Shown here piece by piece: positions 47,385 through 64,000 of a stretch of 64,000 nucleotides of DNA (its first letter is position 1; every line of letters begins with the position of its first letter). Made by a program: the position numbers and the translations under genes. The notes beneath the pieces are model-generated. The model was given only the letters and a program-made list of their open reading frames with translations. It was not told where the DNA came from and searched no databases. Source of the stretch: Patescibacteria group bacterium (GTDB taxonomy: Bacteria > Patescibacteriota > Microgenomatia > UBA8517); NCBI GenBank assembly GCA_026416845.1, contig JAOAEL010000001.1:117940-181939 (forward strand). Reading direction: 5' to 3'.

Positions 47385-48263
47385 CTAAAGAACCAATTTA
47401 TCAACAATATCTCTTATAGATCTTTGTGGTAGATCTAAAGTTTTGCAAGATTCTTCACACAAAAGACCTCCATATTGAGGGTACCTTCTTTTGTCTTCAT
47501 CTGACATTTTTATTCCTCTTAAGTCAATAGATTTCTTGAAAACCTTGGACAAGTAATAAGACGCTATATCATAAGGGGAACTTACATCCGAAGAACTAAC
47601 ATGAAATGTGCCGGGGGAAATATCCTTTTGAATAATTTTGGTTAAAGCCACAGCCACATCATCGATAAATGTCAATCCAATTTTTTGATCAGTAAACAAA
47701 GGATACAAATTCCCACTTTCATAAAGATTTAATATTTTGTGAAGATAATCTAATTTTGCTTCAAAATTAACACGCACTGGGTTGTTTATCCTTACGATAT
47801 AAGCACTACTTGGGAGATTTTCTCTAACATAACTTTCGGCCAACGCTTTTGTATAACCATACCAATTAAGAATTTCAGAATCTAAAACTGGCATACTGCT
47901 TTCAGGATATGGACCCTTATTATCAGGTCTTCCTGAAAAAACCATATCAGTAGATATATATATAAACTTTATTCCTTTGCCTTTAGCAGCATCAACCAAA
48001 TTTTTTGTACCCTCAAAATTTACAACATAACACTCTCCTTTTTTATCATTCCGTTGTTTCTCAGCTTCGGAGACATTGGTAAAAGCGGCAAAATGCACAA
48101 CCGCGCAAAAATCAAAACTTGAAAACAAAGCGTTTATCGAAACTGGATCGGTAATATCTAGCTCAATTTCTTTAGGATAATGCAACAAATCAGAATCTGG
48201 GTAAAGTTCTATAAATCTAGACCCTACCAGTCCTGTTGACCCTGTAACAAGTATGCGCTTCAT
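47385..48263 (-). CDS. rmlD: dTDP-4-dehydrorhamnose reductase-like NAD-dependent reductase
   Basis: MKRILVTGSTGLVGSRF Rossmann N-terminus. ~290 aa. It is the last gene of the rmlA-B-C-D run. Confidence 0.65.
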   Translation of the reverse strand: MKRILVTGSTGLVGSRFIELYPDSDLLHYPKEIELDITDPVSINALFSSFDFCAVVHFAAFTNVSEAEKQRNDKKGECYVVNFEGTKNLVDAAKGKGIKFIYISTDMVFSGRPDNKGPYPESSMPVLDSEILNWYGYTKALAESYVRENLPSSAYIVRINNPVRVNFEAKLDYLHKILNLYESGNLYPLFTDQKIGLTFIDDVAVALTKIIQKDISPGTFHVSSSDVSSPYDIASYYLSKVFKKSIDLRGIKMSDEDKRRYPQYGGLLCEESCKTLDLPQRSIRDIVDKLVL

Positions 48264-48265
48264 AT

Positions 48266-48787
48266 TTAAATTTTAGATAGCGGCAAGGAATTCTTATCAG
48301 CATTAGAAAGTTCAGGAGCCTTCGTAGGCCAAGGGGTATTTAATTCAGGGTCATTCCAAGCTATACGTCTCATTCCATCTTCAGTATAGTATTTATCCAC
48401 CAAATAAAAATAGTCGATAGGTTTGTCACCCAAAACATAATAAGCATTTGCCAACATGGGTAGCAAGAAAAAAGCGCAACAATCGTAAGATGAAACTTTG
48501 CAAGTATATACCTTCTTGTACGTTGACGAATTAGGATCAATATCTGCTATTGCTATAAAAACCTCACCAACCGGATATATCAACTTCGCCCATGGATTTG
48601 CATGAAAACCACGCAAAACATTTGGATTTGAACGGGAATGGTTCCATTGAACAGGTAGAAATTCATAATTGGTTTCAGACAACAAAGATTTTCTAAAGAC
48701 TTCACAAAAAAAACCTCTGGAATCTTTTATTAGATCAAGTTCTATCTTCCAAAGGCCGTTAATGTGAGTTTTTTGAATTTTTGCCAT
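48266..48787 (-). CDS. rmlC: dTDP-4-dehydrorhamnose 3,5-epimerase; start taken at the internal MAKIQKT...
   Basis: INGLWKIELDLIKDSRGFFCEVF...LRGFHAN is an RmlC cupin signature. The ORF-track N-terminal extension would run 77 nt into rmlB. Confidence 0.8.
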   Translation of the reverse strand: MAKIQKTHINGLWKIELDLIKDSRGFFCEVFRKSLLSETNYEFLPVQWNHSRSNPNVLRGFHANPWAKLIYPVGEVFIAIADIDPNSSTYKKVYTCKVSSYDCCAFFLLPMLANAYYVLGDKPIDYFYLVDKYYTEDGMRRIAWNDPELNTPWPTKAPELSNADKNSLPLSKI

Positions 48788-48788
48788 G

Positions 48789-49793
48789 TTAAATTTGCAT
48801 CGTCTTTTTGTACAACTTTTCAGACTTTTTCTTGATTGGCTCCCACCACCATCTATTTTTTTCATACCAGTTTATCGTTTTTGCAATATAGTCGTCAAAA
48901 CTAAAAAGCGGTTTCCAATTAAGTTGCTTTCTTATCTTTGAAGAATCAATAGCATACCTGCGATCATGACCAGGCCTATCTTTTACAAACTGTATTTTAG
49001 AATCAGGCAAATTCATTGTGCGAAGTATAATTTTTGCTACTTCCAGATTATTTATTTCGCGATCGCTCCCACCAACCAAATAAGTTTCTCCTTCTTTTCC
49101 ACTTTTGATGACAAGATCAATCGCTCTCACATGATCCTCCACATACAACCAATCACGAACATACTTGCCATCTCCATATATTTTAATATTCTCTCCTGTC
49201 AATAAATTCGTAATCATTCTTGGGATAAATTTTTCAGTATCTTGATACGGCCCATAATTATTCGAGGTATTTGTAATTGTCACCGGCAATCCATAAGTAT
49301 AAAAATATGCTCTTGCCAAATGATCTGCAGCCGCTTTGCTTGCTGCATATGGGCTTCTTGGATTATAAGAAGTCTGTTCAGTGAATTTTCCTCCATGAAA
49401 AGGCAATTCCCCAAAAACTTCGTCTGTTGAAACAAGGTGAAATCTTTTTATTTTATTTTTTAAAGCGGCATCAAGCAAATTTTGTGTGCCAAGCACATTC
49501 GTTTTAACAAAAATTAACGGATCAAGTATAGATCTGTCCACATGAGTCTCCGCCGCAAAATGAACAACAATATCAGTTTCCTTAATCAAATCATTTACCA
49601 ATTTGCGATTGCAAATATCTCCCTTGACAAATCTATAATTACTTTGGTTTGAAAAATCAAAAGTGGAAGACAGATGACCCGCATATGTTAGCTTGTCAAG
49701 GTTTACAACCTGATGATCAGGATACTTTGCCAACCAATAACGAATAAAATTGCTACCTATAAACCCACAACCACCTGTAACTAGCAATTTCAT
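48789..49793 (-). CDS. rmlB: dTDP-glucose 4,6-dehydratase
   Basis: MKLLVTGGCGFIGSNFIRYWL..., catalytic YAASKAAADHL (YxxxK), 334 aa. Confidence 0.9.
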   Translation of the reverse strand: MKLLVTGGCGFIGSNFIRYWLAKYPDHQVVNLDKLTYAGHLSSTFDFSNQSNYRFVKGDICNRKLVNDLIKETDIVVHFAAETHVDRSILDPLIFVKTNVLGTQNLLDAALKNKIKRFHLVSTDEVFGELPFHGGKFTEQTSYNPRSPYAASKAAADHLARAYFYTYGLPVTITNTSNNYGPYQDTEKFIPRMITNLLTGENIKIYGDGKYVRDWLYVEDHVRAIDLVIKSGKEGETYLVGGSDREINNLEVAKIILRTMNLPDSKIQFVKDRPGHDRRYAIDSSKIRKQLNWKPLFSFDDYIAKTINWYEKNRWWWEPIKKKSEKLYKKTMQI

Positions 49794-49796
49794 AAC

Positions 49797-50513
49797 TCAA
49801 CTGTTTTTCTTTTGAAACCAATAACTATTTACTTCAAAAAGTGAATCGAAAGTCCCCGCGTCACGCCAGTAACCCTTCAATTCTGACCAAGAAAGTTTAT
49901 TTTCTTTTAAATACAACCTGTTCACATCTGTGATCTCTAATTCTCCTCTTTTTGATGGTTTGATGTTTTTGATTTTATCAAAAACAGTATTATCGTATAT
50001 ATAAAGTCCAGTTACAGCGTATGAAGATTTAGGGTTTTTAGGTTTTTCTGTTATTTCTATTATCTTTCCGTCCGAATCAAAGGTGGTCACTCCAAAGCGA
50101 TGGGGATCAATCACTTTCTTTAGAAAAATTTTGGCGCCATCTGAAAATTCTTTTACATCATCAGAGATATCAGCGTCTGTGCAATTATCACCTAGAATTA
50201 CAACTACATTTTCATTATCCGCATAATCCTCAGCTAAAGACAACGCATCGGCAATGCCACCTTCTCTCTCCTGGTACGCAAATGATAAATTTTTTATCCC
50301 TAAATGTTTACCGTTTCTTAAAACTCTCAAAAAGTGTCCCGCATGAGGTCCCCCTACAACAATCATAATATCTGTTATTCCAGCTTTCACCAAAGTTTCT
50401 ATTGGATAAAAGATCATTGGTTTATCGTAAACAGGAAGCAAATGTTTATTTGTTGCGTGCGTAAGTGGATACAATCTAGTTCCAAGTCCGCCTGCAAGTA
50501 TTACACCTTTCAT
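49797..50513 (-). CDS. rmlA: Glucose-1-phosphate thymidylyltransferase (short form)
   Basis: MKGVILAGGLGTRLYPLTHATNKHLLPVYDKPMIFYPIETL is a sugar-nucleotidyltransferase signature. The position upstream of rmlBCD supports the RmlA call. Confidence 0.75.
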   Translation of the reverse strand: MKGVILAGGLGTRLYPLTHATNKHLLPVYDKPMIFYPIETLVKAGITDIMIVVGGPHAGHFLRVLRNGKHLGIKNLSFAYQEREGGIADALSLAEDYADNENVVVILGDNCTDADISDDVKEFSDGAKIFLKKVIDPHRFGVTTFDSDGKIIEITEKPKNPKSSYAVTGLYIYDNTVFDKIKNIKPSKRGELEITDVNRLYLKENKLSWSELKGYWRDAGTFDSLFEVNSYWFQKKNS

Positions 50514-50748
50514 GCAAGGAAATTATATTCACTTAGTAAAAATTTGTACATATCAAAAATATCTCCTGCCAAATGCTTCCTTTATCCAAAAAATTCTCTT
50601 GTTTTTTGAACTACATTTTTAATCAAAAGTTTACAAAACTATAAATTCTTCTATCTTCAACTTTGCAATCTTCATTCATGTATATTTGTCAGCAACTTTT
50701 GATACTTTTCAACTTTATTGTTTTGTTTTTGCCACAAATCTAATTCAT

Positions 50749-51192
50749 TTAACTACACCAACAACCTCTTTTATCATCTTTTGCGTTAACCCAAAAAAAC
50801 CAACATCTACCTATATGCATTTCGAGCTCATACTTTGCCAAAAACGCATAGTCGTTTATTTCAAATTCAATCGCATGCGCAAGAGATAAACTAATAAGCG
50901 TTTGAGTGTATATTTTGTCTCTCAGGACTGGTTTCCTTTTGTATATTTTCTTTTTCCAAAATATCTGGCACTTTTTTATTGCGATACATAATAACAACAG
51001 TCACAAAACCAACTTCGCAAGCGCCACATCAATTATCTTTGCGCAAAAATCAGTACCAACAATAAGCTTGTAAACGCTTAACGGATCATCTTTTATAAAT
51101 AAAAATATTTCATTAATAACTCCAGCAAGCGACATCTGACCTTTTGTGGAACTAAAAAAGGCGTTTTTTGGGCTTAACTCAGAGTATAACAA
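50749..51192 (-). pseudogene. Possible gene remnant: 146-codon reading frame interrupted by a single in-frame TGA (51001-51003)
   Basis: ORF-track entries 51001-51192 and 50749-50997 are in the same frame and are separated only by one TGA. There are no recognisable motifs. They lie inside a 767-bp non-coding stretch. Confidence 0.15.
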
Positions 51193-51280
51193 TTTGTTTC
51201 ATAATCCCTCAAAAACAACAACGTACATAAAAGATTATAGCTTGATTAACTAAAATCTTTGTGTTGTATAATAACCAAGC

Positions 51281-52177
51281 ATGGCAAAATTTAACCCAAT
51301 TAAAAAAGCTGTGATTGCGGCGGCTGGATACGGCACAAGATTTCTTCCAGCGACTAAAAATCAACCAAAAGAAATGCTACCTATAATAGACAAGCCAATT
51401 ATTCAATATTTGGTGGAGGAAGCAATAGATAGTGGAATTGAAGACATTATTTTAGTGACAAGACATGGGCATTCAGCAATGGAAAATCATTTTGATTCCA
51501 ATTACGAATTGGAAGTAATGTTGGAAAGTCAAGGAAAAACGGAACTGTTGGAAAAAGTCAGAAGAGTTTCCCAAATGGCAAATGTGGTATATGTAAGACA
51601 AAGAAAACATTTGCCATACGGCAATGGAACCCCGCTTCTGACAGTAAAAGACTTAATAAGCCAAAACGAAAGATTTGTTTATATGTTTGGAGACGATTTG
51701 GTTTTATCTAAAATACCATGCACAAAACAAATCATTGATTATTCTGACAAAAAGGATGGAGCCGTTATCGCAGCTGTTCAAGAAGTGCCTTTGGAGGAAG
51801 TAAAAAGATACGGCATATACAAAATTGCCAAAGGATCAAATGATAAAGTCGAAAATGCCATAGAAAAGCCATCGCCAGAAGAGGCCCCATCACAACTTGC
51901 ACAATTTGGTAGGTTTGTGCTTAATTATGAAATCATAAATGTGCTTAATAAAAACTATAAAGAAGGGAAGCTTGGCAAGGATGGCGAGCTCTGGCTTACA
52001 GACGCGATAATATCTTACGCTCAAAAAAATCCTGTCTACGCGGCAAAAATAGATGGTGAATGGATGACAACTGGCGATCCTCTCAGGTACATGCAAGCAC
52101 AAGTAAAATTTGCGCTGGCAAGAGAAGATATAGGCAAAAGCTTTGCAGAATTCTTAAAAACTCTTAAACTCGATTAA
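51281..52177 (+). CDS. galU: UTP--glucose-1-phosphate uridylyltransferase
   Basis: KAVIAAAGYGTRFLPATKNQPKEMLPIIDKPIIQYLVEEA and the downstream VEKP motif region. 298 aa. Confidence 0.85.
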   Translation: MAKFNPIKKAVIAAAGYGTRFLPATKNQPKEMLPIIDKPIIQYLVEEAIDSGIEDIILVTRHGHSAMENHFDSNYELEVMLESQGKTELLEKVRRVSQMANVVYVRQRKHLPYGNGTPLLTVKDLISQNERFVYMFGDDLVLSKIPCTKQIIDYSDKKDGAVIAAVQEVPLEEVKRYGIYKIAKGSNDKVENAIEKPSPEEAPSQLAQFGRFVLNYEIINVLNKNYKEGKLGKDGELWLTDAIISYAQKNPVYAAKIDGEWMTTGDPLRYMQAQVKFALAREDIGKSFAEFLKTLKLD

Positions 52178-52192
52178 AAAATAATCTTTTTC

Positions 52193-52456
52193 TTAGGACC
52201 TAAGCAACAAAGAAAATACAACAGTTACACCTAAAATCGCGATCATAATATACTCTGCCACAATAGAAATCTGCAAATCCCCTTTTGTGTGATGGTGAAC
52301 AATCCCCCAAGCTACATAACCAGTCGCCATAGCTATCACAACAGCCATTCTTGCGCCTAAATCGTAAGAAAACACATTAAATCCAATTACTCCAGCCAAA
52401 AGCACACCAAAAAGTGGAAGATATTGTTGAGCATATTTTGCTATTTTTTTCTTCAT
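52193..52456 (-). CDS. Small membrane protein (2-3 TM), unknown function
   Basis: 87 aa with hydrophobic stretches LPLFGVLLAGVIGF and IMIAILGVTVVFSLLL. Co-directional with the CAP-domain gene. Confidence 0.3.
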   Translation of the reverse strand: MKKKIAKYAQQYLPLFGVLLAGVIGFNVFSYDLGARMAVVIAMATGYVAWGIVHHHTKGDLQISIVAEYIMIAILGVTVVFSLLLRS

Positions 52457-52496
52457 ATAAAATTTGATTATTTTTTTTAATTCAATTTAACTTTTT

Positions 52497-53447
52497 TTAA
52501 AGAATCTCTCCAGCCTTGGCTACAATAATAATTACTATAATCATGACCAAAAAAGCAAAATGCGCAAAATTCTTGCCCCCTATACGCGGAACTTTTCTAA
52601 CTGCAATTAAAGCGCCATCAATAACTGTAGCAATAGACAATAAACCAACTACAATCAAGGAAACATTCTTTGTAGTGTCAAAAGGAGAAATCTTCAAAGA
52701 TGAATCTTTCTCAACCAAACCCGTAGAAGATGCGACATATACTACAACAGGTTCTGTTTCGCTTGGCGTATGAGTGGGAGTTGGAATAATAGTTGGACTT
52801 TTGACAGCAGTTTCAAATTTTGATTCAGGCAGTTTTTTCGAAACGCTATTTTTTTGAGCAACCGGCAATTGGGATGAAGATGCTTGAGTCCCAAAAAGCT
52901 GGACAATTATTGTAGTGTCAACTCCATTTAAATCACCTTCAACAACAGCAACGCCAATTTCCGTGTATTTTGGAGAAAGCAAATTTTCCTTGTGCGAAGG
53001 GGAAGCCATCCAAGCATCAACAGCAGAAACTGCATTGGCAAAATCGCGTGCCAAATTCTCGCCGGCATATTTGTAATTGTATCCAACCAAATTAAAAAAA
53101 TACCAAGGCTGAGTCCCATCAGGAGCCACATGCGCCCAATAATCATTGGCTAGCATATGCTCACCTTTTTTTCTGGCGGCTTCGGCAAGCAATGGGTTAT
53201 TCTTAAGCTCGGGCAAACCATTAGCCACACGCTTTTGATTAGAAATAGAAATCACTTCAGTAACAGATATTTGAGAAGCATACCCCAAAACACGAGCTCC
53301 TGTTTGCGGCAAGAAACTAATTATGGCTTGAACCAAAAGCAAAAATGCCAAAACATAAGTAAGAAAGCTAAAATGCAAAACTCTTGCTCTTTGATTGTTG
53401 CTATGATGTGGAGTGAAATAATGCAAAAAAAGGCTAACAAGTATCAT
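52497..53447 (-). CDS. CAP/SCP-domain (YkwD-like) protein with an N-terminal TM, a Pro/Thr-rich linker and a C-terminal membrane anchor
   Basis: NDYWAHVAPDGTQPWYFFNLVGYNYKYAGENLA...WMASPSHKENLLSPKYTEIGVAV is a CAP-domain signature, followed by the PTIIPTPTHTPSETEP linker and C-terminal hydrophobic helices. Confidence 0.7.
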   Translation of the reverse strand: MILVSLFLHYFTPHHSNNQRARVLHFSFLTYVLAFLLLVQAIISFLPQTGARVLGYASQISVTEVISISNQKRVANGLPELKNNPLLAEAARKKGEHMLANDYWAHVAPDGTQPWYFFNLVGYNYKYAGENLARDFANAVSAVDAWMASPSHKENLLSPKYTEIGVAVVEGDLNGVDTTIIVQLFGTQASSSQLPVAQKNSVSKKLPESKFETAVKSPTIIPTPTHTPSETEPVVVYVASSTGLVEKDSSLKISPFDTTKNVSLIVVGLLSIATVIDGALIAVRKVPRIGGKNFAHFAFLVMIIVIIIVAKAGEIL

Positions 53448-53672: not shown

Positions 53673-54860
53673 ATGGTTTGTACCCTTAATTTACGGTTTG
53701 TTTTTCTCATGAAGCAAATATTACTGTCCATCGCCACAATAGCCGCAATAGGAAGCATATCTTTTGGCTTGTCCTCGGCTTTTTTTTCTGACACAGAAAC
53801 TTCGCAGGCAAACTCTTTGACTGCTGGATCTTTTGACCTTTTGTTAAACGGAGGCAACAACACTTCCGCGATTGTGAACATTAATGATTTAAAACCGGGA
53901 GACAATCAAATAGTAGAAAAATCTTTGCGAATAGAAGATAACTCGGGTTATGTTTTCATGCACATAAAAGATCTGTTACCTTCTCAAGGCACGCAAACAG
54001 AACCTGAGATCTTAGAAGAAAATGGCACTCCAAAATTTGACATACAAAACTACATCAAATACGATCTTGAAGCAAACAACCAAACAATCATTTCATTAGA
54101 CAACCAAGTTTTTCTGCCGGAAGTCGTCTCTTGCTGGATACCTCTTGGAGAATTGCCAGGACAAACAAATGTTTCTGTAAAACAAAGTTTTCACTTGGAT
54201 CCGAACGTCACAAATTGGGCACAAGGAGACACGCTTAGCTTTGTTGAAGAATTTTATTCTGTTCAGAGCAGAAACAACTCCAATCCAGCTCCGCCAGTTT
54301 CTTTGACTGGAAGAATTTGGGATAAAAACATCAAAAAGTGTGTAAATTGTCCATCTGGGATTCTTTTTGCCGACGGAGTAGACAGCGCAAATACCAAACA
54401 AGGCACTTTGAAAAACGGCAATCCAATAACAGATCCAAATAGAACAAATCCTTTAAACGCAACAGGACCTAATAACTGGGTAAACGGCACAGGAACAAAC
54501 TTTTTCTCACTGGGAAAAGGAGGGTATATTACTCTGACTTTTTCATCGCCGGTGGTTAACGAACTAGGCAATGATCTTACCTTCTACGAAGCCACAAATG
54601 GCAGAGCGACATATCCTGAAGAGAAAGCGGATGTTTATGTAAGTTTTGATGGAGTCAGCTACTTTTTCATTGGCACAGTAACAAGTGAACCGGGTCCCGG
54701 TGGAGACGGCATTATGGAGTTAGATATCGCGCCTTCGGGATTGCCTTCCATAAAATATGTGCGTTTAATAGACACGACAAATTTCACTCCTCACGCAAAC
54801 AACGCTGACGGCTACGACATTGACGCGGTAAAAGCAAAAAGCGCATGTCTAAAACAATGA
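53673..54860 (+). CDS. Secreted TasA/camelysin-like protein with a SipW-cognate-class signal peptide (alternative start at 53709, MKQILLS)
   Basis: N-terminus ...LLSIATIAAIGSISFGLSSAFFSDTETSQANSLTAGSFDL carries the A-FFSDTETS hallmark of SipW-dependent signal peptides. A NINDLKPGDNQIVEKSLRIEDN core motif is shared with the two paralogs. Confidence 0.7.
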   Translation: MVCTLNLRFVFLMKQILLSIATIAAIGSISFGLSSAFFSDTETSQANSLTAGSFDLLLNGGNNTSAIVNINDLKPGDNQIVEKSLRIEDNSGYVFMHIKDLLPSQGTQTEPEILEENGTPKFDIQNYIKYDLEANNQTIISLDNQVFLPEVVSCWIPLGELPGQTNVSVKQSFHLDPNVTNWAQGDTLSFVEEFYSVQSRNNSNPAPPVSLTGRIWDKNIKKCVNCPSGILFADGVDSANTKQGTLKNGNPITDPNRTNPLNATGPNNWVNGTGTNFFSLGKGGYITLTFSSPVVNELGNDLTFYEATNGRATYPEEKADVYVSFDGVSYFFIGTVTSEPGPGGDGIMELDIAPSGLPSIKYVRLIDTTNFTPHANNADGYDIDAVKAKSACLKQ

Positions 54861-55012: not shown

Positions 55013-55933
55013 ATGAAAAAGATTTTAATAAGTTTGTTAACAATTGGCGCGGTTGGAAGCCTTGCTTTCGGAGCAACATCGGCATTTTTCTCTGATACAG
55101 AAACGTCAACAAACAACAAAATAGTCGCTGGGAAACTAGATCTGAAAGTTGATAGCACTGCCCATTATGCTGGAATGGTATGTAAAAATAATGTCTGGAC
55201 AGATGAAGATAATGATCAAACAAACAATCCAAGACCTGAACTTCTAGGTAAAACTTGTTCGGGCACTTGGACATCAACCGATCTTGGTCCAACAAATCAG
55301 TTTTTCAATTTGTCAGATGTGAAACCGGGCGACACTGGAGAAAATACGCTCAGTCTTACGGTTTTGGACAATGATGCTTGGGCATGCATTGTAATGAAAA
55401 ATCTTAAAAATGATGAAAATCAATGTACAGAGCCTGAATCTGACCCGCAAAGCGGCAACGACACAACATGCGGAAACGATCCGGTTGGAGCAGGACTGGG
55501 CGAACTTGCTCAAAATCTGTACTTTACAGCATGGTTGGACCAGGGGAATCAAGCAGGTTGGCAAAATTCAGATAATGACAATACAAATGACGATCCGGGT
55601 GAAGGAGATAACAAGTGGCAAGGTCCAACACTTGAACCTTTGTTATTCTCAAACCAACAAGGTCCCGCGTCTGATGTCCTAAATGGAAAAGTATACGCTC
55701 TGGCTGATTCCACAAACGGGAATTATTTAGCTGGTAGCGTTACTAATTACATCGGGCTTCAGTGGTGCGCTGGACAAATGACTATATCTGGAAACACTAT
55801 CAGTTGTAACGGGGCGACAATGGGCAATAATACCCAAACCGATTCCTTGACAGCGGATGTTTCCATTTATGTGGAACAACGCAGAAACAATCCGGCATTT
55901 AAATGCGCCGGGGCGAATCTGCTTCCTAATTAA
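55013..55933 (+). CDS. Secreted TasA/camelysin-like protein with a SipW-cognate-class signal peptide (paralog 2)
   Basis: MKKILISLLTIGAVGSLAFGATSAFFSDTETSTNNKIVAGKLDLKVD, followed by FNLSDVKPGDTGENTLSLTVLDN. Confidence 0.7.
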   Translation: MKKILISLLTIGAVGSLAFGATSAFFSDTETSTNNKIVAGKLDLKVDSTAHYAGMVCKNNVWTDEDNDQTNNPRPELLGKTCSGTWTSTDLGPTNQFFNLSDVKPGDTGENTLSLTVLDNDAWACIVMKNLKNDENQCTEPESDPQSGNDTTCGNDPVGAGLGELAQNLYFTAWLDQGNQAGWQNSDNDNTNDDPGEGDNKWQGPTLEPLLFSNQQGPASDVLNGKVYALADSTNGNYLAGSVTNYIGLQWCAGQMTISGNTISCNGATMGNNTQTDSLTADVSIYVEQRRNNPAFKCAGANLLPN

Positions 55934-56062: not shown

Positions 56063-57292
56063 ATGAAATACTTTAGGAACTTTTTTTATGTTTTCAAAAA
56101 CGCAAGTTTAATTTTGCTCTTCACAGCGGCTTCATTAATAACTCTTTCACATTTTGGGTATTTAAAAACAATTAAACCATACATTGTTCAATCAGGCTCT
56201 ATGGAACCGTCAATACCAACAGGAAGCGTGATCTTTTCTCTCCATTCCAAACTTTATCAGCCGGGAGACATAATCACTTTTTTTGCAAACGGTGATCCTA
56301 AAACTGTTGTTACACACAGGCTCAATTTCAAAATTTTTAAAGACAATCAAACTATATACATCACCTCTGGAGACGCAAACGAAGACTTTGACAAATGGGA
56401 AGTGAGATATGAGCATATAGTTGGCAAAGTTGTGGCAATCATACCACATCTTGGGCATGTGATCGATTTTGCCAAAACACCACAAGGATTTATAGCTCTT
56501 GTGGTTGTTCCTGCAACAATCGTAATCTATGAAGAACTAAAAAACCTCCTGCGAGAAATTGGCAAGCTCGTTTTGGCAATCAAAATTTTTTTTAAAAAGA
56601 AAAAGGAAGAAAATTCAAGTCTATTTAATTTCGCAAAAAGCGTCAATCTAAATAGAATTTTTGTTTTTGTGCCAATTTTAGGAGTGTTTGTCTTTATAAC
56701 CGCAAATTCCGGAGGATACTTTTTAGATACAGAAAAAAGCGCAGGGAACGTTATAGGAGTTGCAACATCGTATAATTCGCCAACAATAACACCTACCAAC
56801 TCAAACTCACCCTCGCCAACCATCTCTCCTACAAGCACACTACCACCCACAAACACAATAACCGCCACAGCAACGCCAACAACAACTCCCACAATTTCTC
56901 CTATGGTTAAGCTAAACGAAGCCGCGCCTGCAACTAATCCCGAATGGGTAGAAATTTACAACACATACCCTACTGCCGATTTTCTTAAAAATTACTGGCT
57001 TGACGATGACACTAGTTTTACAAGCGACTCAGGAAACTCCCCAAAAGTGCTAATGTCATCGCTTGACACATCGAACACTTTATTCCCAACCATAGACCTT
57101 ACAAATCCAATTTTTAACAATACCGGAGATTTTATAGTTATTTTTGATAACTTGGGAAATCTTGTGGACTCGGTTAATTACACCAGTAATTTTGGCACTA
57201 AATCCATCGGTCGAGAAATTGACGGAACAGGAATATGGAAATTCCCTTGCGCTAATTCAACAAAAGGAGCAAGCAACAACACAAAATGTTAA
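56063..57292 (+). CDS. sipW: SipW-type (archaeal/ER-type) signal peptidase I fused through a Pro/Thr-rich linker to a C-terminal lamin-tail domain (LTD)
   Basis: TM helix, then catalytic-Ser box QSGSMEPSIPTGSVIF, His box TVVTHRL, second TM GFIALVVVPATIVIY, linker TPTNSNSPSPTISPTSTLPPTNTITATATPTTTPTISP, then LNEAAPATNPEWVEIYN...GDFIVIFDNLGNLVDSVNY, which matches the LTD consensus. Confidence 0.8.
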   Translation: MKYFRNFFYVFKNASLILLFTAASLITLSHFGYLKTIKPYIVQSGSMEPSIPTGSVIFSLHSKLYQPGDIITFFANGDPKTVVTHRLNFKIFKDNQTIYITSGDANEDFDKWEVRYEHIVGKVVAIIPHLGHVIDFAKTPQGFIALVVVPATIVIYEELKNLLREIGKLVLAIKIFFKKKKEENSSLFNFAKSVNLNRIFVFVPILGVFVFITANSGGYFLDTEKSAGNVIGVATSYNSPTITPTNSNSPSPTISPTSTLPPTNTITATATPTTTPTISPMVKLNEAAPATNPEWVEIYNTYPTADFLKNYWLDDDTSFTSDSGNSPKVLMSSLDTSNTLFPTIDLTNPIFNNTGDFIVIFDNLGNLVDSVNYTSNFGTKSIGREIDGTGIWKFPCANSTKGASNNTKC

Positions 57293-58311
57293 AAAAGATT
57301 TTTCTATTATCAATATCGACAGCGGCAATTTTAACAGTGATCTTTTGGCACAAAAACACGACAAAAAATGTCTACGCAATAGATCCTCTGATAATAACAT
57401 ACAACAATTCGCCCACACCAAATCCAGTTTTTAATGTGGCAAATTTCTTACCCGGAGACAATAAGATCGAGAAAATTAAAGTAAAAAACAATTTGCCAAG
57501 CGGAAGCTTCGGAGTCTCGGTGGATGGGATATTGGATCAAGAACAAAAAAACTTGGCAGAAATACTACAAATTACTATCACAGAAGTTGGTTTTGGGGAT
57601 ATTTATGGAGGTTCAACTGGCAAAAAAACTCTTAAACAGTTTCTGAACTCGCCACCAATTAACTTGGGAGTATTCCCATCAGGAAGTGAGAAAGAATATG
57701 AATACAAAATATTTTTCCCACATGAATCAGGCAACGAATATAAAAACGGGCATGTTGTCTTTACGCTAATTTTCAACAATTTTATAACAATTGATCTTCC
57801 AAAAGAATGCGCTCACTTGGCAAATCAAATTGTCAACGTAATTGAAGGCACTGAAGGCAATGACAACATACATTCAACCTACCTTAGCGACCTAATACTT
57901 GCCAAAGGAGGTAACGATAAAATCAGAGCTTCAAGCGGAAGCGATTGTATTGTAGCCGGAGACGGCAATGACACAATAGACGCAGGCACAGGCAATGAAG
58001 TTATTTTAGGCGGAGGAGGAAATGACAACATAAGAGGTGGTACAGGAAACGACACTATCTATGGAGGAAGCGGAAATGACAGAATCGACGCGGGAAGCGG
58101 AGACGATGTAGTCTATGGCGATGATGGAGATGACAACATAGAAGGCGGAAGCGACAAAGATAAACTATATGGCGGCAAAGGCAAAGATGACATAAGAGGC
58201 GGAAGCAACAACGACCTTTTAGACGGAGGAGAGGATTTTGACAAATTAAATGGAAATTCCGGCCAAGACACGTGCAAATTCGGCGAAGTGCTTAGTTCTT
58301 GTGAACTGTAA
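57286..58311 (+). CDS. Secreted TasA-like core protein with C-terminal RTX (hemolysin-type) calcium-binding repeats
   Basis: Signal anchor MLKKIFLLSISTAAILTVIFW; FNVANFLPGDNKIEKIKVKNN core shared with the two TasA-like paralogs; then 12 tandem GGxGxDxxx nonapeptides (GGNDKIRAS ... SNNDLLDGG). ATGTTAA overlap with the sipW stop. Confidence 0.7.
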   Translation: MLKKIFLLSISTAAILTVIFWHKNTTKNVYAIDPLIITYNNSPTPNPVFNVANFLPGDNKIEKIKVKNNLPSGSFGVSVDGILDQEQKNLAEILQITITEVGFGDIYGGSTGKKTLKQFLNSPPINLGVFPSGSEKEYEYKIFFPHESGNEYKNGHVVFTLIFNNFITIDLPKECAHLANQIVNVIEGTEGNDNIHSTYLSDLILAKGGNDKIRASSGSDCIVAGDGNDTIDAGTGNEVILGGGGNDNIRGGTGNDTIYGGSGNDRIDAGSGDDVVYGDDGDDNIEGGSDKDKLYGGKGKDDIRGGSNNDLLDGGEDFDKLNGNSGQDTCKFGEVLSSCEL

Positions 58312-58470
58312 ATATCATGAAAAGTAAAATTTTATTGTTTGAATCATATTTTAAAAAATTTTTTATATATTTTCTCATTTTAACCTGCTTTAATTTATTT
58401 GGCGCTTATGCCGTCTAATAAATTTTGTCAGCAGGATTAAGATTAAAAAGAAAGGAGGTGAAAAGAGAAA

Positions 58471-59061
58471 ATGTTACTCAAAAAGATAACAAGCAGTTTG
58501 GCAACATCTGGCGCTTTGTTGGTGTTGGCAACTGGAGCGGTATTTGCAAGCACAGATGTTACCATCTCGGGAAACGGAGAAGATTCAGTAAACACTGTGA
58601 AAGTTAACTTAACTAACACAACATCCGTTTACCAAAGCAATGCAACAAATGTCAAAAACGATGTCTCATCAAGTGCGTCAACCGGCTCAAACACCATTTC
58701 AAAAACAACAAATGGTAATGCCAAGATAGACACTGGGGACGCGACAAGCATGGTGTCTGTTATGGTTGCCGGCGGGAATAATCACCTGTCTAGCAATCCA
58801 TGCGGATGTGTAAATGGCGAAACGACAGTGACCGTCAAAAATAACGGAGCTGACTCAACCAACAAAGTAAAAGTGAAGTCTAAAAACACTTCACAACAAG
58901 GACAGCACGGAGAAACAAATGTATCAACATCTGTTTCTTCTAAAGCCAAAACCGGTAAAAATAAGGTTAAAAAAGCCACCGGTGGCAATTCTGAAGTCAA
59001 AACAGGTGACAGCGAAAGCGCCGTGTCTGTAATAGTAACCGGAGGCCATAATTATTTGTAA
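58471..59061 (+). CDS. Secreted two-repeat protein of an unrecognised N/T/S-rich repeat family (TGDA family)
   Basis: Signal peptide MLLKKITSSLATSGALLVLATGAVFA. Two ~80-aa repeats, each ending ...TG.N.....T.GN.....TGD..S.VSV.V.GG.N.L, plus a CGC pair. Strong RBS AAAGGAGGTG before the ATG. Confidence 0.6.
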   Translation: MLLKKITSSLATSGALLVLATGAVFASTDVTISGNGEDSVNTVKVNLTNTTSVYQSNATNVKNDVSSSASTGSNTISKTTNGNAKIDTGDATSMVSVMVAGGNNHLSSNPCGCVNGETTVTVKNNGADSTNKVKVKSKNTSQQGQHGETNVSTSVSSKAKTGKNKVKKATGGNSEVKTGDSESAVSVIVTGGHNYL

Positions 59062-59082
59062 TGAAAGCCTAACGGTTTAATC

Positions 59083-59122
59083 AAAAAACCTCCTGCCTAA
59101 GCGTAGGGGGTTTTTTATTTTT
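59083..59122. terminator. Bidirectional rho-independent terminator between the convergent 58471(+) and sortase(-) genes
   Basis: AAAAAA-CCTCCTGC-CTAA-GCGTAGGGGG-TTTTTTATTTTT: an 8-bp stem (with G-U pairs) flanked by an A-run on one side and a T-run on the other. Confidence 0.55.
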
Positions 59123-59129
59123 AGATAAA

Positions 59130-59681
59130 CTAGTCGACGGACAAAACAACAACCAATCTCTTGGAATCTTTATAGCCGCTACAAGTATACAAGGTAAGCT
59201 TTTTTTCTTCGCTCGATGGCGCAATAATTTTTGTATCCGTTGGCAAAACTTCCAAAACATCATCAACTTTATATTCAAACCAAGTTTTATTAGTTAAAAC
59301 AAAAACAGAGTCTCCTTTTTTTATATACTTTAAATTGCCAAACAAATTATCTTTTGCATGCCCAAATATGACCACATTGCCAATTTCTCCTGGATATGCG
59401 GACCCTACACCCCATCCAGCTTTATCATCAAACACCTCCCAATAACCACTTTTTACAAAAGATACTTGGACATTAACATTTAGTTTAAGATCTGGAATAA
59501 GTATTTTTTGCGGGATTTTTTCAGCGTCAATTTCATTGATTAAAGCAAATTCTTCCAGTGTTGCAACTTGATTAACAGATAAAACTGAAGCGTCCGCTTT
59601 TGGTTTAAACAAAAGCAACAAAACGCCAAGGGCAAAAAGACAAATGCCTATTGTAATTTTAGAAGGGTAATTTATTCTCAT
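59130..59681 (-). CDS. Sortase (cysteine transpeptidase), with an N-terminal membrane anchor
   Basis: Catalytic His in VIFGHAKDNLFGN, TLxTC-type Cys in KLTLYTCSG, Arg in RLVVVLS. The start is taken at the second Met (MRINYPSK); 59708 is also possible. Confidence 0.8.
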   Translation of the reverse strand: MRINYPSKITIGICLFALGVLLLLFKPKADASVLSVNQVATLEEFALINEIDAEKIPQKILIPDLKLNVNVQVSFVKSGYWEVFDDKAGWGVGSAYPGEIGNVVIFGHAKDNLFGNLKYIKKGDSVFVLTNKTWFEYKVDDVLEVLPTDTKIIAPSSEEKKLTLYTCSGYKDSKRLVVVLSVD

Positions 59682-60810
59682 TTTCACTCGCTTTTCCCGC
59701 CGAATCAATTATCATACCCAAACCCAAAACCAAAAACAAAATTCCAAACAAATAATTTAGATCCAAACTTTTTTCGCTTGAAGTTTTTGAAAGGCCCAAA
59801 ATTTCTCCGCCGCCAATGGCATTTTCGCCCAAAAAACTGGTTTTGCTTAAAAAATTTGCGTTATTGTTGTTTGCAGATCCGTCGTTTGGATTTTTAATGA
59901 TTGAATCTTCAGGAACAGTCGGAGGGTCATCAGGATCATCCCCATTATCAAAAAAACAACAATTAAAACTAATAAAATTTGAATTTATATAATCATTTCT
60001 TAAAAGAATATCTAAAAAAATATCGCCTGTAATTATTGCCGAATCTCCCAAATTGCCGCCAATGAAATTTTCACCACTATTTGCGTCAACAAAAACTTCA
60101 TTTAGAATCACTGAACTATTCTCAACAAAAACATTATTTTTTAAATTTTTGAAATTGTTTGCGCTACTCCCACCGACATAAGCGTTGTCAATAAACCTGA
60201 AACTTGAAGCATCTTCTGAAAGATTGGCAGGCAAACTAGAAATAGATGAATTAATTGGACCATTTTTTACAGATGTTACAACTTTTACATCCCCTGTTGT
60301 TATTTTTGTATTGCGAGAATTATCATTTGCTTTATTGAGACCAGTGTTTGCAACCCCAACAATTTTAGTTTTAATTACAGCGCTATTTTGAGAAACAAAA
60401 TTATTTGACAAATTGCTTGAAGAACTAACTGTATTTGTTGAATTAGAACCATTGTTATTAATGTTAACCTGCTGGTTTATCTTGGCAGTTTCACAACAAT
60501 TATCTTTAAAACCATTTTGATTTGATAAATTAATCGCGGTCTGACTAATTTTCGCGTCGCCAGTTTTTACGTTAACTTCATCTCCACTTTGATCAATTAA
60601 ATTTGATCCGGTGTTTGTATTAGAAAAGACATCGTTTTGAATAGATGAGTTGTTTGTTTGCAAAACATTTACCGAATTTGACAATTGAACAATCGCCTGA
60701 CTTGAAGAATCGGAACCGTTATCAGATATCGTCAACTCATACCCAAGCGCACACTTTGGTTGACATAAAAATATGAAAAAAAAGATTAGAAAAACAAAAA
60801 ATTTAGACAT
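59659..60810 (-). CDS. Secreted repeat protein, TGDA family (paralog)
   Basis: Signal peptide MSKFFVFLIFFFIFLCQPKCALG. Repeats ISDNGSDSS...NTNTGSNLIDQSGDEVNVKTGDAKISQ and NNGSNSTNTV...ANTGLNKANDNSRNTKITTGDVKVV. Has a CC pair and a C-terminal hydrophobic segment without LPxTG. Confidence 0.6.
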   Translation of the reverse strand: MSKFFVFLIFFFIFLCQPKCALGYELTISDNGSDSSSQAIVQLSNSVNVLQTNNSSIQNDVFSNTNTGSNLIDQSGDEVNVKTGDAKISQTAINLSNQNGFKDNCCETAKINQQVNINNNGSNSTNTVSSSSNLSNNFVSQNSAVIKTKIVGVANTGLNKANDNSRNTKITTGDVKVVTSVKNGPINSSISSLPANLSEDASSFRFIDNAYVGGSSANNFKNLKNNVFVENSSVILNEVFVDANSGENFIGGNLGDSAIITGDIFLDILLRNDYINSNFISFNCCFFDNGDDPDDPPTVPEDSIIKNPNDGSANNNNANFLSKTSFLGENAIGGGEILGLSKTSSEKSLDLNYLFGILFLVLGLGMIIDSAGKASENENKLPF

Positions 60811-60872
60811 AGCAAAAATTGCGTTCTGAGGAAATCTGAGATTAATACTTTTGAGGATTTTCCTTTAAAAAA

Positions 60873-63221
60873 TCACTTTCTCGAGAACATCGCAAGTATA
60901 GCGTTTTTGTTTTTTGCAATAAATAAACCCGTGAAAATTGGGATTAATGTCAGAAGCCATGCAAGATTTATGTTGATAGTTTTTTTCTCATTTCTGATTT
61001 CAGCACTTTCAACAAAGGCGTCTACATCACCAACAATCCCAGTTTCGCTTTGATCTTTAGAACCTGAAAATGCCAAAACTGATTTGTTGGAATTACTAGC
61101 TTTTTTCGATATCGCTTTATTTGAAAAAATCTTTTTATTTGATTCTTCCTTCATATTTGTAACTTCATTATAAACCTGAAAACCGGAAGTGTTTGGGTTT
61201 GCAAGAGTGCTACTTTTGTCTTTTTCGGCTACTCCTCCGCGTCCACTATCGTTAACTGAAGATGGCTTCGAACCAACATAATCAGGAGAGACAAAATTAC
61301 CAACCCAACTGCCAAACACATTTACAACTGTCACGAATAATCTGCCGCTACCGACTATATTGTTATTTACAAAGTTAACCAAATTGGCAACAATGTTTGC
61401 GTCTCCGGTAACAATATTTGTATTGCCACCGGTATTTTTGCTTGCCTGATTTTTGCCAGTATTAGCCGAAAGATTCAAATTATTAGTGACATTTGCAGTG
61501 TTTGATTGAACAATTGTATTGTTTGCGATTGAAGAGCTAAAAGCATTGTTAAATGAATTTGCGCCATTGCCATTATTTGAAGCATAAATTTCTCCATTTT
61601 CATCAACTAAAAACTCAATCCCATTTGATCCAGCCAAATTTGCGCCTTCAGGAGACCCCAATATTCTACCAACCCAATTTCCAGCCTGATTAATAAGAAC
61701 AAGCCACCAATCCCCGCCAACTATATTTGTGTTTGCAACATTGATAACTTGCGCAGTGACATTTGCATTCCCTGAATTAACAGTGTTATTGCCATCTGTA
61801 TTTTTACTCACTTCGTTTTCACCCGTGTTGGCGTCAAAAAACAAGTTGTTGTTTATATTGGCATTATTAAACTGATACAACTGATCGTTTGAACTGACAC
61901 TTGCATCCGCAGTGTTTGTAGAGTGTGCGCCATTGCCTGTATTTTGAACATTGCCAGACAAAAGACAACAAGGCAAACCAAATCCGAAAGGAGCAATTAT
62001 GTCTCCAACCAAATTGCCAAAAATATTTACAACACCATAAATCACATTGCCAGCTATGTTATTGTTTACAAAAGTCAAAGCGTTTGCAGAAACATTCGCA
62101 TCGCCAGTGGTAATTGTCACATCTCCGCCAGTATTTTTATCCGCATAATTTTTGCCGGTATTGGAATCAAGCTTAAGTGTGTTCAAAACCACAGCATCGT
62201 TAGTCTGAAATTTATTTGTGTTTAGCGCATAATCAAGCAAAGCGTTATTCGAAGAATTCGCGCCATTTTGATGGTTGGCAACATTACCTCCACCCAAAGT
62301 TGAACAGTTAACTATGCACGCATTGCCAAAATCCAAAACAATATCCCCAATGTGATCATCTTCAACATTAAACTCTGCAATAACCACCCCATCAACATTT
62401 GTGTTGACAGAAGTAATAATAGTGCCAGTTGTATTTGCGTTGCCTGTTTTAATGTTTACATTGCCAACATTTTTGGAAGCGGAATTTCCGCCAGTGTTAG
62501 TATCTTGAGAAACTGAATTTATAACAACAGCTTTATTGTCTTGAATTGTGTTTGAATTATTTTCAGAAACAAAAGCTCCATTGTTTGCAGAACCAGATCC
62601 ATTGCCTTCATTAACAACAGCAGAAGCACCACCTGCCAAGCCGGTAGGCACTGCCGATAAATTGCTGTTTGCAACCACAGCTCCGGTGACAGAATTTGTC
62701 GCATTGCCAGTTCTTAGATCAGTTTTACCCGAATTTCCATCTGAGTTTTGTCCCCCTGTAGAATTATCAACAGCCAAACTTTTAGGAGAAACTGAAGAAG
62801 ACTGCTGGTTCTCAGCAGGTGAACTTGAATTATCTGAAGCGGCAAAATCAGAGTTAATTGATCTATCTCTTTTTGTTTTTTCATTTGAACTTTCTGAATT
62901 TTTTGGTTTGGAATTATTACCAGATTGATCACCTTGAGAAGAACCAGAATTTTGGCTATCTGGCAAATTATTTAGACTGCCAGAGGGAATGGTAGGAGCA
63001 GTCGGGGCAACAGGAGGAATTGGAGCCGCAGGTGGAGTTGGAGACAAAGGCGGAGATGGCGCGTTGGGAGCCATAGGCGCCGACGGAGCAACCGGAGCGC
63101 TTGGCACTGATGGAATTTCAGAAGCCAAAACCCCTGCCACTTGCACAAATAAAATTACAAATATAGTAAAAAGGGCAATTATTCTTTTAGTTATACTTTT
63201 TATAAATTTTATAAATTGCAT
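60873..63221 (-). CDS. Large (782 aa) secreted surface protein: Pro-rich N-terminal tract, four or five ~110-aa TGDA-family repeats, and a C-terminal hydrophobic anchor
   Basis: Signal peptide, then PSVPSAPVAPSAPMAPNAPSPPLSPTPPAAPIPPVAPTAPTIPSG. Repeats such as LDSNTGKNYADKNTGGDVTITTGDANVSANALTFVNNNIAGNV and LSANTGKNQASKNTGGNTNIVTGDANIVANLVNFVNNNIVG. C-terminal LAWLLTLIPIFTGLFIAKNKN. Confidence 0.65.
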   Translation of the reverse strand: MQFIKFIKSITKRIIALFTIFVILFVQVAGVLASEIPSVPSAPVAPSAPMAPNAPSPPLSPTPPAAPIPPVAPTAPTIPSGSLNNLPDSQNSGSSQGDQSGNNSKPKNSESSNEKTKRDRSINSDFAASDNSSSPAENQQSSSVSPKSLAVDNSTGGQNSDGNSGKTDLRTGNATNSVTGAVVANSNLSAVPTGLAGGASAVVNEGNGSGSANNGAFVSENNSNTIQDNKAVVINSVSQDTNTGGNSASKNVGNVNIKTGNANTTGTIITSVNTNVDGVVIAEFNVEDDHIGDIVLDFGNACIVNCSTLGGGNVANHQNGANSSNNALLDYALNTNKFQTNDAVVLNTLKLDSNTGKNYADKNTGGDVTITTGDANVSANALTFVNNNIAGNVIYGVVNIFGNLVGDIIAPFGFGLPCCLLSGNVQNTGNGAHSTNTADASVSSNDQLYQFNNANINNNLFFDANTGENEVSKNTDGNNTVNSGNANVTAQVINVANTNIVGGDWWLVLINQAGNWVGRILGSPEGANLAGSNGIEFLVDENGEIYASNNGNGANSFNNAFSSSIANNTIVQSNTANVTNNLNLSANTGKNQASKNTGGNTNIVTGDANIVANLVNFVNNNIVGSGRLFVTVVNVFGSWVGNFVSPDYVGSKPSSVNDSGRGGVAEKDKSSTLANPNTSGFQVYNEVTNMKEESNKKIFSNKAISKKASNSNKSVLAFSGSKDQSETGIVGDVDAFVESAEIRNEKKTININLAWLLTLIPIFTGLFIAKNKNAILAMFSRK

Positions 63222-63297
63222 ATAATTTTTTTGTATTTTTTAGTTTCTTTACTTTAAAAAATTTTTAAACTTTATTTTTTATCTTCTACCTTCTGGT

Positions 63298-63335
63298 TTT
63301 GGGTGATCCGTCGAAGTGCAAACGAATCACCCAAA
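63298..63335. repeat. Perfect 10-bp inverted repeat TTTGGGTGAT ... ATCACCCAAA with an 18-nt loop, between two repeat-protein genes
   Basis: Read directly from the sequence. It lies 3' of the 63354 gene and 5' of the 60873 gene. No U-tract on either strand, so it is more likely an operator or RNA-processing hairpin than a classical terminator. Confidence 0.4.
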
Positions 63336-63353
63336 TACCTTATAAAGGCTGGT

Positions 63354-64000
63354 CTACCCCATAAGGAATTCCAAAAGATCTCTCAAATTAAACGAAATGT
63401 TTAAATTGAAACCATACATTGGAAATTCCCATTCAGGAGTTTCACCATAAACATTGGAATTACCACCGTTTGTAACTTCCACATAGCTTTCGGCATCACC
63501 GGTTTTGATATAAGGATCTGATCCATCATAACCAGTTCCTTTCTTGGATTCGTTATAACCAGTGCCTGCGTCAGCATAAACTAAATTGTCGACACCGTAA
63601 CCGCCATTTGATTGAAAAACGCCAAGAGAGTCATCAAAGACTGCTTCAATGTCGTTTCTCGAATCATAACCATTTCCATGGATTTTTGCCAAAACATCAA
63701 AAAGACATCCGCAATCAACGTCTGCCCAATTGAAGTTTGTCATTGTGTCAACAACCACATCCACAGTGGCATCTCCTGTCTCTATGACAAAGTCACCACC
63801 TGTGTTTTTGTTTGCTTTATTGGAACCAGTTCCGGCATCAACATCAACTTTGTTGTAAACAGAAGCTGAGTTGTTTTGCACAACATTTAGATCGTGACCA
63901 AAGTCTAGATCCAAATCGTTTCTGCTATCAGCGCCGTTTCCAACAACCCAAGCGCTAAGAGTTTTGGCTCCGTTTCCGTTAGCACCAACTCTTGCAGAAT
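63354..64000 (-). CDS. Partial CDS (C-terminal part; N-terminus lies beyond the window end): secreted repeat protein, TGDA family
   Basis: The frame is open to the window edge: ...NGNGAKTLSAWVVGNGADSRNDLDLDFGHD is upstream of the ORF-track TTG start. Repeats DAGTGSNKANKNTGGDFVIETGDATVDVVV and DAGTGYNESKKGTGYDGSDPYIKTGDAESYVEV, plus a CGC pair. Confidence 0.55.
   Translation of the reverse strand, partial: SARVGANGNGAKTLSAWVVGNGADSRNDLDLDFGHDLNVVQNNSASVYNKVDVDAGTGSNKANKNTGGDFVIETGDATVDVVVDTMTNFNWADVDCGCLFDVLAKIHGNGYDSRNDIEAVFDDSLGVFQSNGGYGVDNLVYADAGTGYNESKKGTGYDGSDPYIKTGDAESYVEVTNGGNSNVYGETPEWEFPMYGFNLNISFNLRDLLEFLMG

Follow-up and report, generated by a model that had tools for sequence, protein, structure and literature searches.

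A conserved cassette of repeat proteins and a sortase in Microgenomates-type bacteria, with a possible role in building an anchored surface polymer

Bacteria of the candidate phyla radiation (CPR, or Patescibacteria) make up a large share of bacterial diversity, and their lineage-specific proteins directed to the membrane or surface are mostly still annotated as hypothetical. A survey retrieved 35 families of proteins that are enriched in Microgenomates, most of them hypothetical, together with a near-ubiquitous sortase (PMC6744442). The repeat proteins of the present work may belong to these families. Here we describe a cassette of four neighbouring genes for repeat proteins, named A to D, and one sortase gene in a 64,000-nucleotide stretch of a Patescibacteria group bacterium of the Microgenomatia (contig JAOAEL010000001.1 of assembly GCA_026416845.1, positions 117,940 to 181,939). 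The window, as we call the whole stretch, carries the cassette at positions 58471-64000, where gene content was read from open reading frame calls as A, sortase, B, C and a partial D. An initial annotation made from the letters alone had reported four neighbouring repeat proteins here, and both the reading frames and the shared repeat were recovered at these sites. The N-termini of A, B and C are basic and then hydrophobic, with small residues last, and were judged by eye to be Sec signal peptides. The features of the cassette are as follows, with lengths in amino acids (aa).

58471-59061, plus strand: A-type protein of 196 aa, with a predicted signal peptide and two repeats split by a CGC pair
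59083-59116, no strand: bidirectional terminator-like hairpin with a 14-bp stem, flanked by an A-run and, on the opposite side, a T-run; it separates the 3' end of A from that of the sortase gene
59130-59708, minus strand: sortase of 192 aa counted from a TTG start, overlapping the 3' end of B
59659-60810, minus strand: B-type protein of 383 aa, with a predicted signal peptide, three repeats, a Pro/Asp/Gly-rich linker and, at the C-terminus, a sorting signal
59662-59793, minus strand: putative sorting signal of B as read from the sequence, EILG-LSKTS-S, then LNYLFGILFLVLGLGMII as hydrophobic segment, then a short tail that contains two Lys
60873-63221, minus strand: C-type protein of 782 aa
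63274-63356, minus strand: conserved RNA stem-loop directly 3' of the D stop codon, with a stem of about 15-25 bp, a GCACUUC loop and no U-run
63354-64000, minus strand: partial D-type protein, the C-terminal 214 residues of a gene that extends past the window end

The A gene forms its own transcription unit, convergent with the sortase gene. The contig L005, from the metagenome-assembled 'Patescibacteria group bacterium SKYG105', is 97% identical to the window and holds a complete D of 410 aa with 4 repeats.

The repeat shared by the four proteins is a real sequence family and no artefact of composition. Eleven units were delimited (two in A, three in B, four and a half unit in C, two in the visible part of D), and these align across 84 profile columns with invariant positions G, S, G, N and G. 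The unit measures about 80-108 aa, which corrects the 45-110 aa given earlier. Comparing the repeat profile with itself in HHalign detected no shorter internal period, so the unit of about 80 aa appears to be the basic one. A consensus built from 909 distinct repeats of related loci reads I.GNG..S.N-x13-Q.N.A.[IV].N.[VLI]...A.TG.N.A..NTGG...I.TGDA.....[VI].N..N.N, with two Gly positions conserved in 100% of the repeats and several Asn and Thr positions in 88-99%. The linkers between repeats carry Cys pairs (CC, CGC or C-x3-C). The earlier statement that each protein has a Cys-Cys or Cys-x-Cys pair is corrected as follows: A and D have CGC, B has CC twice, after repeats 1 and 3, and C has both C-x3-C and CC. 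Biased composition was considered as a source of the similarity, given that Asn makes up 11-16% and Ser plus Thr 12-29% of the four proteins. A hidden Markov model (HMM) trained on the four repeats of C alone nevertheless scored 70 bits in A, 66 in B and 78 in D. When each protein was shuffled 300 times with its composition kept, the best scores were 0.7, -0.6 and 5.6 bits. With thousands of homologues sharing invariant positions in addition, there is practically no chance that the similarity is Asn/Ser/Thr low complexity and that the reading frames represent no true family, in line with the earlier judgement that such an artefact was improbable.

Searches of sequence databases agree with the initial annotation, which was unable to assign the repeat to a family. 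Scans of A to D against Pfam-A (2025), NCBIfam (2026) and PHROGs gave a best E-value of 0.018, far short of the cutoffs. Eight diverse homologues had no Pfam match, and 60 D-type members scanned singly against Pfam yielded no recurrent family. Sequences in the PDB gave 0 matches at E-values up to 1-10, both in phmmer searches with C and in hmmsearch runs with the profiles A1 and A2. The Pfam models for chaplins (PF03777), curli (PF07012) and Fap repeats had no match in the repeat proteins either. The source names read for homologues were 'hypothetical protein' except for one 'TonB', a label that is spurious since it was caused by the Pro-rich tract. No prior description was found in the literature on CPR sortase substrates, surface layers and TasA. 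By these sequence comparisons, the repeat family is new, with no counterpart among the families of Pfam, NCBIfam and PHROGs or among PDB sequences. What is new here is the protein family and its conserved cassette, while the kind of system is already known.

The family is large and has been found in CPR bacteria. When 1.84 billion representative proteins were searched exhaustively with a profile, 3,420 clusters matched at E<=1e-3, of which 2,324 reached E<=1e-10 and 777 E<=1e-30. By length, the top matches form two classes, one of about 400-500 aa and one of about 750 aa. A word-indexed search with the repeat profile gave 11 homologues, a number that reflects limited sensitivity rather than rarity, as the exhaustive search demonstrates. 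Every named source of family members belongs to the CPR/Patescibacteria. A scan that relies on exact peptide patterns, and so yields a minimum, detected a gene for a C-type protein in at least 187 genomes representative of species. Informative genome titles name Gottesman-, Woese-, Davies-, Levy-, Chisholm- and Amesbacteria and, in a few cases, Parcubacteria. More divergent members occur in metagenome-assembled genomes (MAGs) labelled Parcubacteria group and Berkelbacteria. Some of these divergent CPR members combine the repeat with DUF11, fn3, PG_binding_1 or dockerin domains, each an extracellular context. A tblastn search with a D-type protein against plasmid and phage collections gave no match. 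Many contigs with the cassette (L008, L012-L014, L019, L020 and others, 50-57% identical with C) bear the title 'uncultured Gammaproteobacteria bacterium'. These titles come from binchicken/SRP co-assembly MAGs and are probably placeholders or wrong taxonomy.

The cassette has a fixed organization. Nearly all of the roughly 80 related loci, which come from the candidate phyla Gottesman-, Woese-, Davies-, Levy-, Chisholm- and Amesbacteria, have D, C, B and the sortase gene in this order, followed by A on the other strand. The arrangement is characteristic of Microgenomates-type CPR bacteria. In these loci, D-types usually have 4-5 repeats in about 410-450 aa, C-types measure about 700-800 aa, B-types have either three repeats in about 380 aa or one repeat in about 195 aa, sortases measure about 185 aa, and A-types have two repeats in about 200 aa. 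Orthologues of A sit in the same place on the opposite strand in 31 loci. The database protein P0020 reads as a fusion of C and B, and L048:5779 encodes 8 repeats in 1046 aa. Such a fusion is either genuine or a product of frameshift or read-through; that some assemblies read C and B as one protein confirms the adjacency of the two genes. Together with the fixed order across about 80 loci, the apparent C-B fusion in P0020 identifies A, B, C and D as four old orthologue groups. The initial annotation had proposed tandem amplification. This view is not upheld, as the four groups separated anciently and differ in their anchors and expression signals.

A and D have no anchor, and both start and finish with repeats without an obvious capping domain. 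An A-type protein ends with its second repeat, which is Lys-rich in A of the window and basic in 22 of 27 orthologues (+5 vs -2 for repeat 1), and A-types are near neutral overall. D-types are very acidic, with a median charge of -14.7 per 100 residues, and have a C-terminal tail that is acidic and aromatic; D of the window has a CGC pair and a tail of Trp, Phe and acidic residues. The C-type protein of the window begins with its signal peptide, a PxxP tract and a Ser/Asn-rich spacer. There follow 4.5 repeats, each extended by an insert, and then a Ser/Asn-rich stalk and the motif KTININLAW; a transmembrane segment comes next, and the protein ends in a basic tail. Both the PxxP tract and the insert NNNIxG...V.N.FG.WVG, which the initial annotation had singled out as (N.N)IVG...V.N.FG.WVG, are present and conserved in 112 homologues. 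A nearly invariant motif, K.[IV].[IV]NLAW, abuts the C-terminal transmembrane segment of all C-types (window positions 60876-60977, minus strand) and to our knowledge resembles no known sorting signal. C-types of related loci likewise have a basic tail beyond this segment.

At their C-termini, B-types carry a Pro/Gly-rich linker followed by a pentapeptide motif and then a hydrophobic segment. In a set of 66 distinct B-types, the motif is LPx[TS]G-like in 38 and GL[SA]x[TA][SAG], the type found in the window, in 18; 10 have no motif, mostly in truncated genes. The hydrophobic segment follows the motif in those B-type C-termini that were read. The LSKTS motif of the window aligns with LAxTG signals of non-repeat proteins, such as QVLG-LATTG-N, which adjoin second sortases in related loci. 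Just upstream of the sortase signals lies a tripeptide [VI]LG, both in B-types and in unrelated LAxTG proteins (QVLGLATTGN), and the same tripeptide occurs 30-40 residues ahead of the C-type transmembrane segment. It was seen in B and C of the window and at L033:3-536, L045:1682-2245, L053:1883-2407 and L076:1322-2203. The tripeptide may be an extended recognition element.

The sortase of the window has the FGH, TLYTC and KR motifs and an in-frame ATG nine codons past its TTG start. It matches PF04203 (E 3e-24) and passes the generic model TIGR01076 with 59 bits against a cutoff of 39. Assignment to a class is less clear. Across the NCBIfam models for classes A-F, the cassette sortases score 48-74 bits against cutoffs of 160. 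The window type is best in class E (53 bits), and LPxTG-associated sortases are best in class C (62-74 bits), both below the cutoff of 160. The sortase gene lies directly downstream of B in 48 of 66 loci. Two sortase lineages fill one and the same cassette position (window positions 59130-59708 and loci L003-L084), each tracking one B motif. Between sortases that accompany LPxTG-type B proteins and those that accompany GLS-type ones, identity is 25%; within each type it is 47-48%. Species relatedness fails to explain this split because in the same loci the identities within types equal those between types, at 46-48% for C-types and 49-52% for D-types. Two sortase lineages therefore appear to have each served the cassette with the matching signal, as judged from these comparisons, and the sortase of the window belongs to the lineage paired with GL[SA]x[TA][SG] signals. 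The co-variation of sortase lineage and B motif type provides indirect but strong sequence evidence that B is a substrate of the cassette sortase. A link between the repeat proteins and the sortase had been suggested earlier from adjacency, and it gains support from the fixed order, the sorting signal on B and this co-variation. The pairs would represent natural enzyme-substrate combinations of two divergent sortase lineages with two motifs, which bears on sortase specificity and on ligation tools.

The fold of the repeat can be approached through C. An AlphaFold model of C residues 140-670, built on the alignment of 112 homologues, is all-beta, with a mean predicted local distance difference test score (pLDDT) of 69.9 and a predicted template modelling score (pTM) of 0.68. 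The half of each repeat with the pattern Q.N.A...NTGG...I.TGDA...N..N.N and the inserts reach a pLDDT of 80-97, with values above 90 in the repeat cores. Compared with known structures, the C model scored 8.2 with SufD, 7.4 with SufB, 6.9 each with a putative adhesin and filamentous haemagglutinin, 6.5 with RTX, 5.6 with the S-layer protein RsaA, 5.1 with FapC and 3.9 with CsgA. A Foldseek search of the model against the PDB and BFVD (viral structures) returned nothing significant. We describe the predicted fold as solenoid-like and without a close solved relative, which is consistent with the beta-solenoid proposed by the initial annotation. SufB and SufD, which are cytoplasmic proteins of Fe-S assembly, share 5-9% identity with the model and have no repeat motif, and the resemblance of their beta-helix is in fold only.

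The expression signals set D and A apart from C, B and the sortase. The strong Shine-Dalgarno sequence AAAGGAGGTG lies upstream of A in the window, and a strong bidirectional terminator lies downstream. Median Shine-Dalgarno duplex energies are -15.3 kcal/mol for D and -16.2 for A vs -0.6 for C, -2.5 for B and -3.5 for the sortase. A duplex of -8 kcal/mol or stronger precedes 88% of D and 93% of A genes vs 1% of C, 5% of B and 9% of sortase genes. Between D and C, the window has a hairpin of -34 kcal/mol (z -4.8). Across 66 distinct D-C spacers the median z is -5.8, with 98% below -2, vs a median of 0.12 for C-B control spacers. The stem shows many compensatory changes, the loop CACUUC recurs in 58 of 66 hairpins, and a U-run follows in only 2 of 66. 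A covariance model, R1, gave one match per locus, always at the D-C site (e.g., L018:547-627 and L077:5581-5661) and nowhere else in 1.05 Mb of related loci, and the matches include loci outside its training set. An Rfam cmscan of 58000-64000 at E<=1 had no match to the hairpin and one chance match elsewhere. An ordinary intrinsic terminator was considered and ruled out on account of the rare U-run, the conserved loop and the specificity of the model for this site. The hairpin is a new RNA structure specific to this operon. In fimbrial operons, stem-loops 3' of the major-subunit gene raise its transcript over downstream genes. By analogy, the likeliest role of the D-C hairpin would be to raise the D transcript over the genes downstream.

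The interpretation builds on properties computed directly: the repeat family with its size and range, gene order, sorting signals, co-variation of sortase and signal, the RNA element and the way ribosome-binding sites differ between the genes. We suggest that the cassette builds an anchored surface polymer, a fibre or a layer, from paralogous all-beta repeat proteins, a reading to which we give moderate confidence. It is favoured because a shared repeat prone to stacking, free and presumably abundant D and A, a putatively wall-anchored B, membrane-anchored C and a dedicated sortase match the logic of known surface fibres whose free subunits are seeded by cell-bound paralogues. D and A would be exported by the Sec pathway, remain unanchored and be made in bulk as building blocks, with the very acidic D as the bulk subunit. 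B would be exported too, and the adjacent sortase would cut its C-terminal signal (LSKTS here, LPxTG elsewhere) and link it covalently to the cell wall. C would be kept in the membrane by its C-terminal helix and carry its repeat rod on a flexible stalk. Since B and C share the repeat with D and A, both are proposed as cell-bound seeds or docking sites on which free subunits could stack through repeat-to-repeat contacts. The D-C hairpin, along with the lack of ribosome-binding sites for C, B and the sortase, would keep anchors and enzyme scarce relative to the subunits. If D is indeed the main surface protein, it would offer a handle for labelling, enriching and imaging uncultivated cells. In any case, four hypothetical families can now be defined by one common domain and assigned to a conserved operon with a partner enzyme, and their assembly is described by a model that can be tested.

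Several points weigh against this proposal. We infer where the proteins are located and that they are exported, that B is cleaved and anchored, that the subunits polymerise and in what ratios they are made. The tail after the hydrophobic segment in B of the window is only weakly basic, with two Lys; the tails of LPxTG-type B orthologues are clearly basic (e.g., YLRLRSGRSP). The structural model covers C only, a single-sequence AlphaFold prediction of A has a pLDDT of 37, and in the C model the I.GNG..S.N half, the most conserved part of the repeat, and the Cys linkers reach only 33-55. Expression is gauged by proxy, through Shine-Dalgarno strength, and a simple caller of open reading frames supplied the gene starts. 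The D-C hairpin could have a role other than setting subunit ratios. A more far-reaching version is tentative and on balance doubtful. Here, Microgenomates, and related CPR bacteria with variant architectures, would make a kind of extracellular polymer not seen before, composed of acidic, uncapped D and small, basic-tailed A. It would be seeded on membrane-held C and on B fixed to peptidoglycan by a dedicated, unclassified sortase, of whose lineage one part would read the non-canonical signal L[SA]x[TA][SG], with ratios set by the operon-specific RNA. Such a polymer could be the fibre or S-layer-like coat observed on ultra-small groundwater bacteria and would be central to host contact.

The main rival to an anchored polymer is that the four proteins are independent adhesins, monomeric beta-helical rods for attachment to host cells or minerals that form no polymer. 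Under this scenario it is difficult to see why the unanchored D and A carry the strongest translation signals, as a monomeric adhesin that lacks an anchor would escape into the medium. Adhesins specific to a host usually vary in number and sequence, whereas the four paralogues keep a fixed order and about 50% identity over many candidate phyla. We therefore consider independent adhesins unlikely. In a further scenario, acidic, Asp/Asn-rich, Ca2+-binding proteins form a non-polymeric envelope scaffold or an ion-binding coat that buffers or stiffens the wall. A to D have no match to the RTX nonapeptide GGxGxDxUx (PF00353), a model matched at E 3e-29 by a neighbouring protein of 341 aa, and a coat of this kind leaves the pairs of anchored and free paralogues unexplained. 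It is distinctly improbable as a separate explanation and overlaps with the polymer we favour, as Ca2+-dependent assembly would be compatible with both.

An anchored polymer with free and fixed subunits has parallels in organization and, weakly, in fold. The chaplins ChpA-H of Streptomyces (PF03777) include 'long' members with LAXTG signals, which are fixed to the wall by class E sortases, and 'short' free members that assemble on them to give a layer of surface fibres. As in the cassette, chaplins are paralogous secreted proteins with one common domain, anchored and free members and conserved Cys pairs. The sortase of the window also scores best in class E, and LSKTS of B aligns with LAxTG signals. 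There is no sequence relationship, however, and the chaplin domain has about 40 hydrophobic residues, in contrast to a polar, Asn-rich repeat of about 85 aa in 1-5 copies. The cassette also has a membrane-anchored member in C, keeps its five genes in a fixed order and includes an RNA element of its own. Compared to curli (CsgA/CsgB) and Fap (FapC/FapB), the repeat is about 4x longer with no detectable sub-repeat and no sequence match, and the cassette has a sortase and no outer-membrane secretion channel. Chaplins are the closest system in organization and curli and Fap the closest in repeat chemistry, with homology to neither. Sortase-assembled pili of Gram-positive bacteria (SpaA/Cna-B, class C) likewise have a sortase gene within secreted structural paralogues and an LPxTG-type signal on a subunit, and the cassette sortases paired with LPxTG score best in class C. 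In contrast to pili, the sorting signal is found on one of the four cassette paralogues, Pfam scans gave no Ig-like Cna-B/SpaA domains, a pilin-motif lysine was not identified in cassette proteins and no sortase passes a class cutoff. RTX beta-roll proteins, including RsaA, differ in the nonapeptide and in having a C-terminal type I signal rather than an N-terminal Sec signal.

Genes of a SipW/TasA type also lie next to the cassette, and the initial annotation, which had named the sortase, SipW and TasA-type genes correctly, took this neighbourhood as meaningful context. The repeat proteins could then be accessory or anchoring parts of a TasA-like fibre system formed by SipW, two camelysin/TasA-like proteins and an RTX protein. 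The genes are adjacent in the window, and about 10 of 84 loci (about 12%) have SipW- or TasA-like genes no more than 6 kb from the cassette. In about 88% of loci, e.g., L001 and L003, the cassette occurs without SipW or TasA nearby. The model for SipW-cognate signal peptides (TIGR04088) and the TasA/camelysin model (PF12389) match the two upstream proteins and none of A to D. SipW and TasA are hence recurrent neighbours rather than parts of the system, and a function as TasA accessories is highly improbable. Overall, the observation made in the initial annotation was confirmed and its interpretation was partly supported.

The neighbouring genes show several features of their own. Two proteins on the plus strand (53673-54860 and 55013-55933) have camelysin/TasA-type N-termini and SipW-cognate signal peptides. 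The PF12389 match of both is limited to the first 50-90 residues, and their C-terminal regions are long, divergent and Cys-containing. The SipW-type signal peptidase (56063-57292, plus strand; TIGR02228, 82 bits) is extended by a linker rich in Thr and Pro and, C-terminally, by a lamin-tail domain (PF00932, E 2e-8), a fusion that is unusual in architecture among signal peptidases. The secreted 341-aa protein with six RTX calcium-binding repeats is encoded at 57286-58311 on the plus strand and starts within the end of the SipW gene. RTX-like neighbours were found in about 10 of 84 related loci. Positions 46435-53447 adjoin the cassette with genes for cell-envelope sugars, namely homologues of the dTDP-rhamnose pathway enzymes (4,6-dehydratase, 3,5-epimerase and RmlD-type reductase), two nucleotidyl transferases, a polysaccharide deacetylase and a membrane-anchored CAP-domain protein. 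CAP-like neighbours occur in 16 related loci.

The window as a whole has a G+C content of about 30-40%. GC skew is below zero in almost all 2-kb bins of 1-64000 (about -0.1 to -0.35), and the minus strand holds nearly all reading frames of at least 150 aa between 1 and 40 kb. This pattern recalls the strand composition disparity that was reported for one complete Microgenomates genome (PMC7143001).

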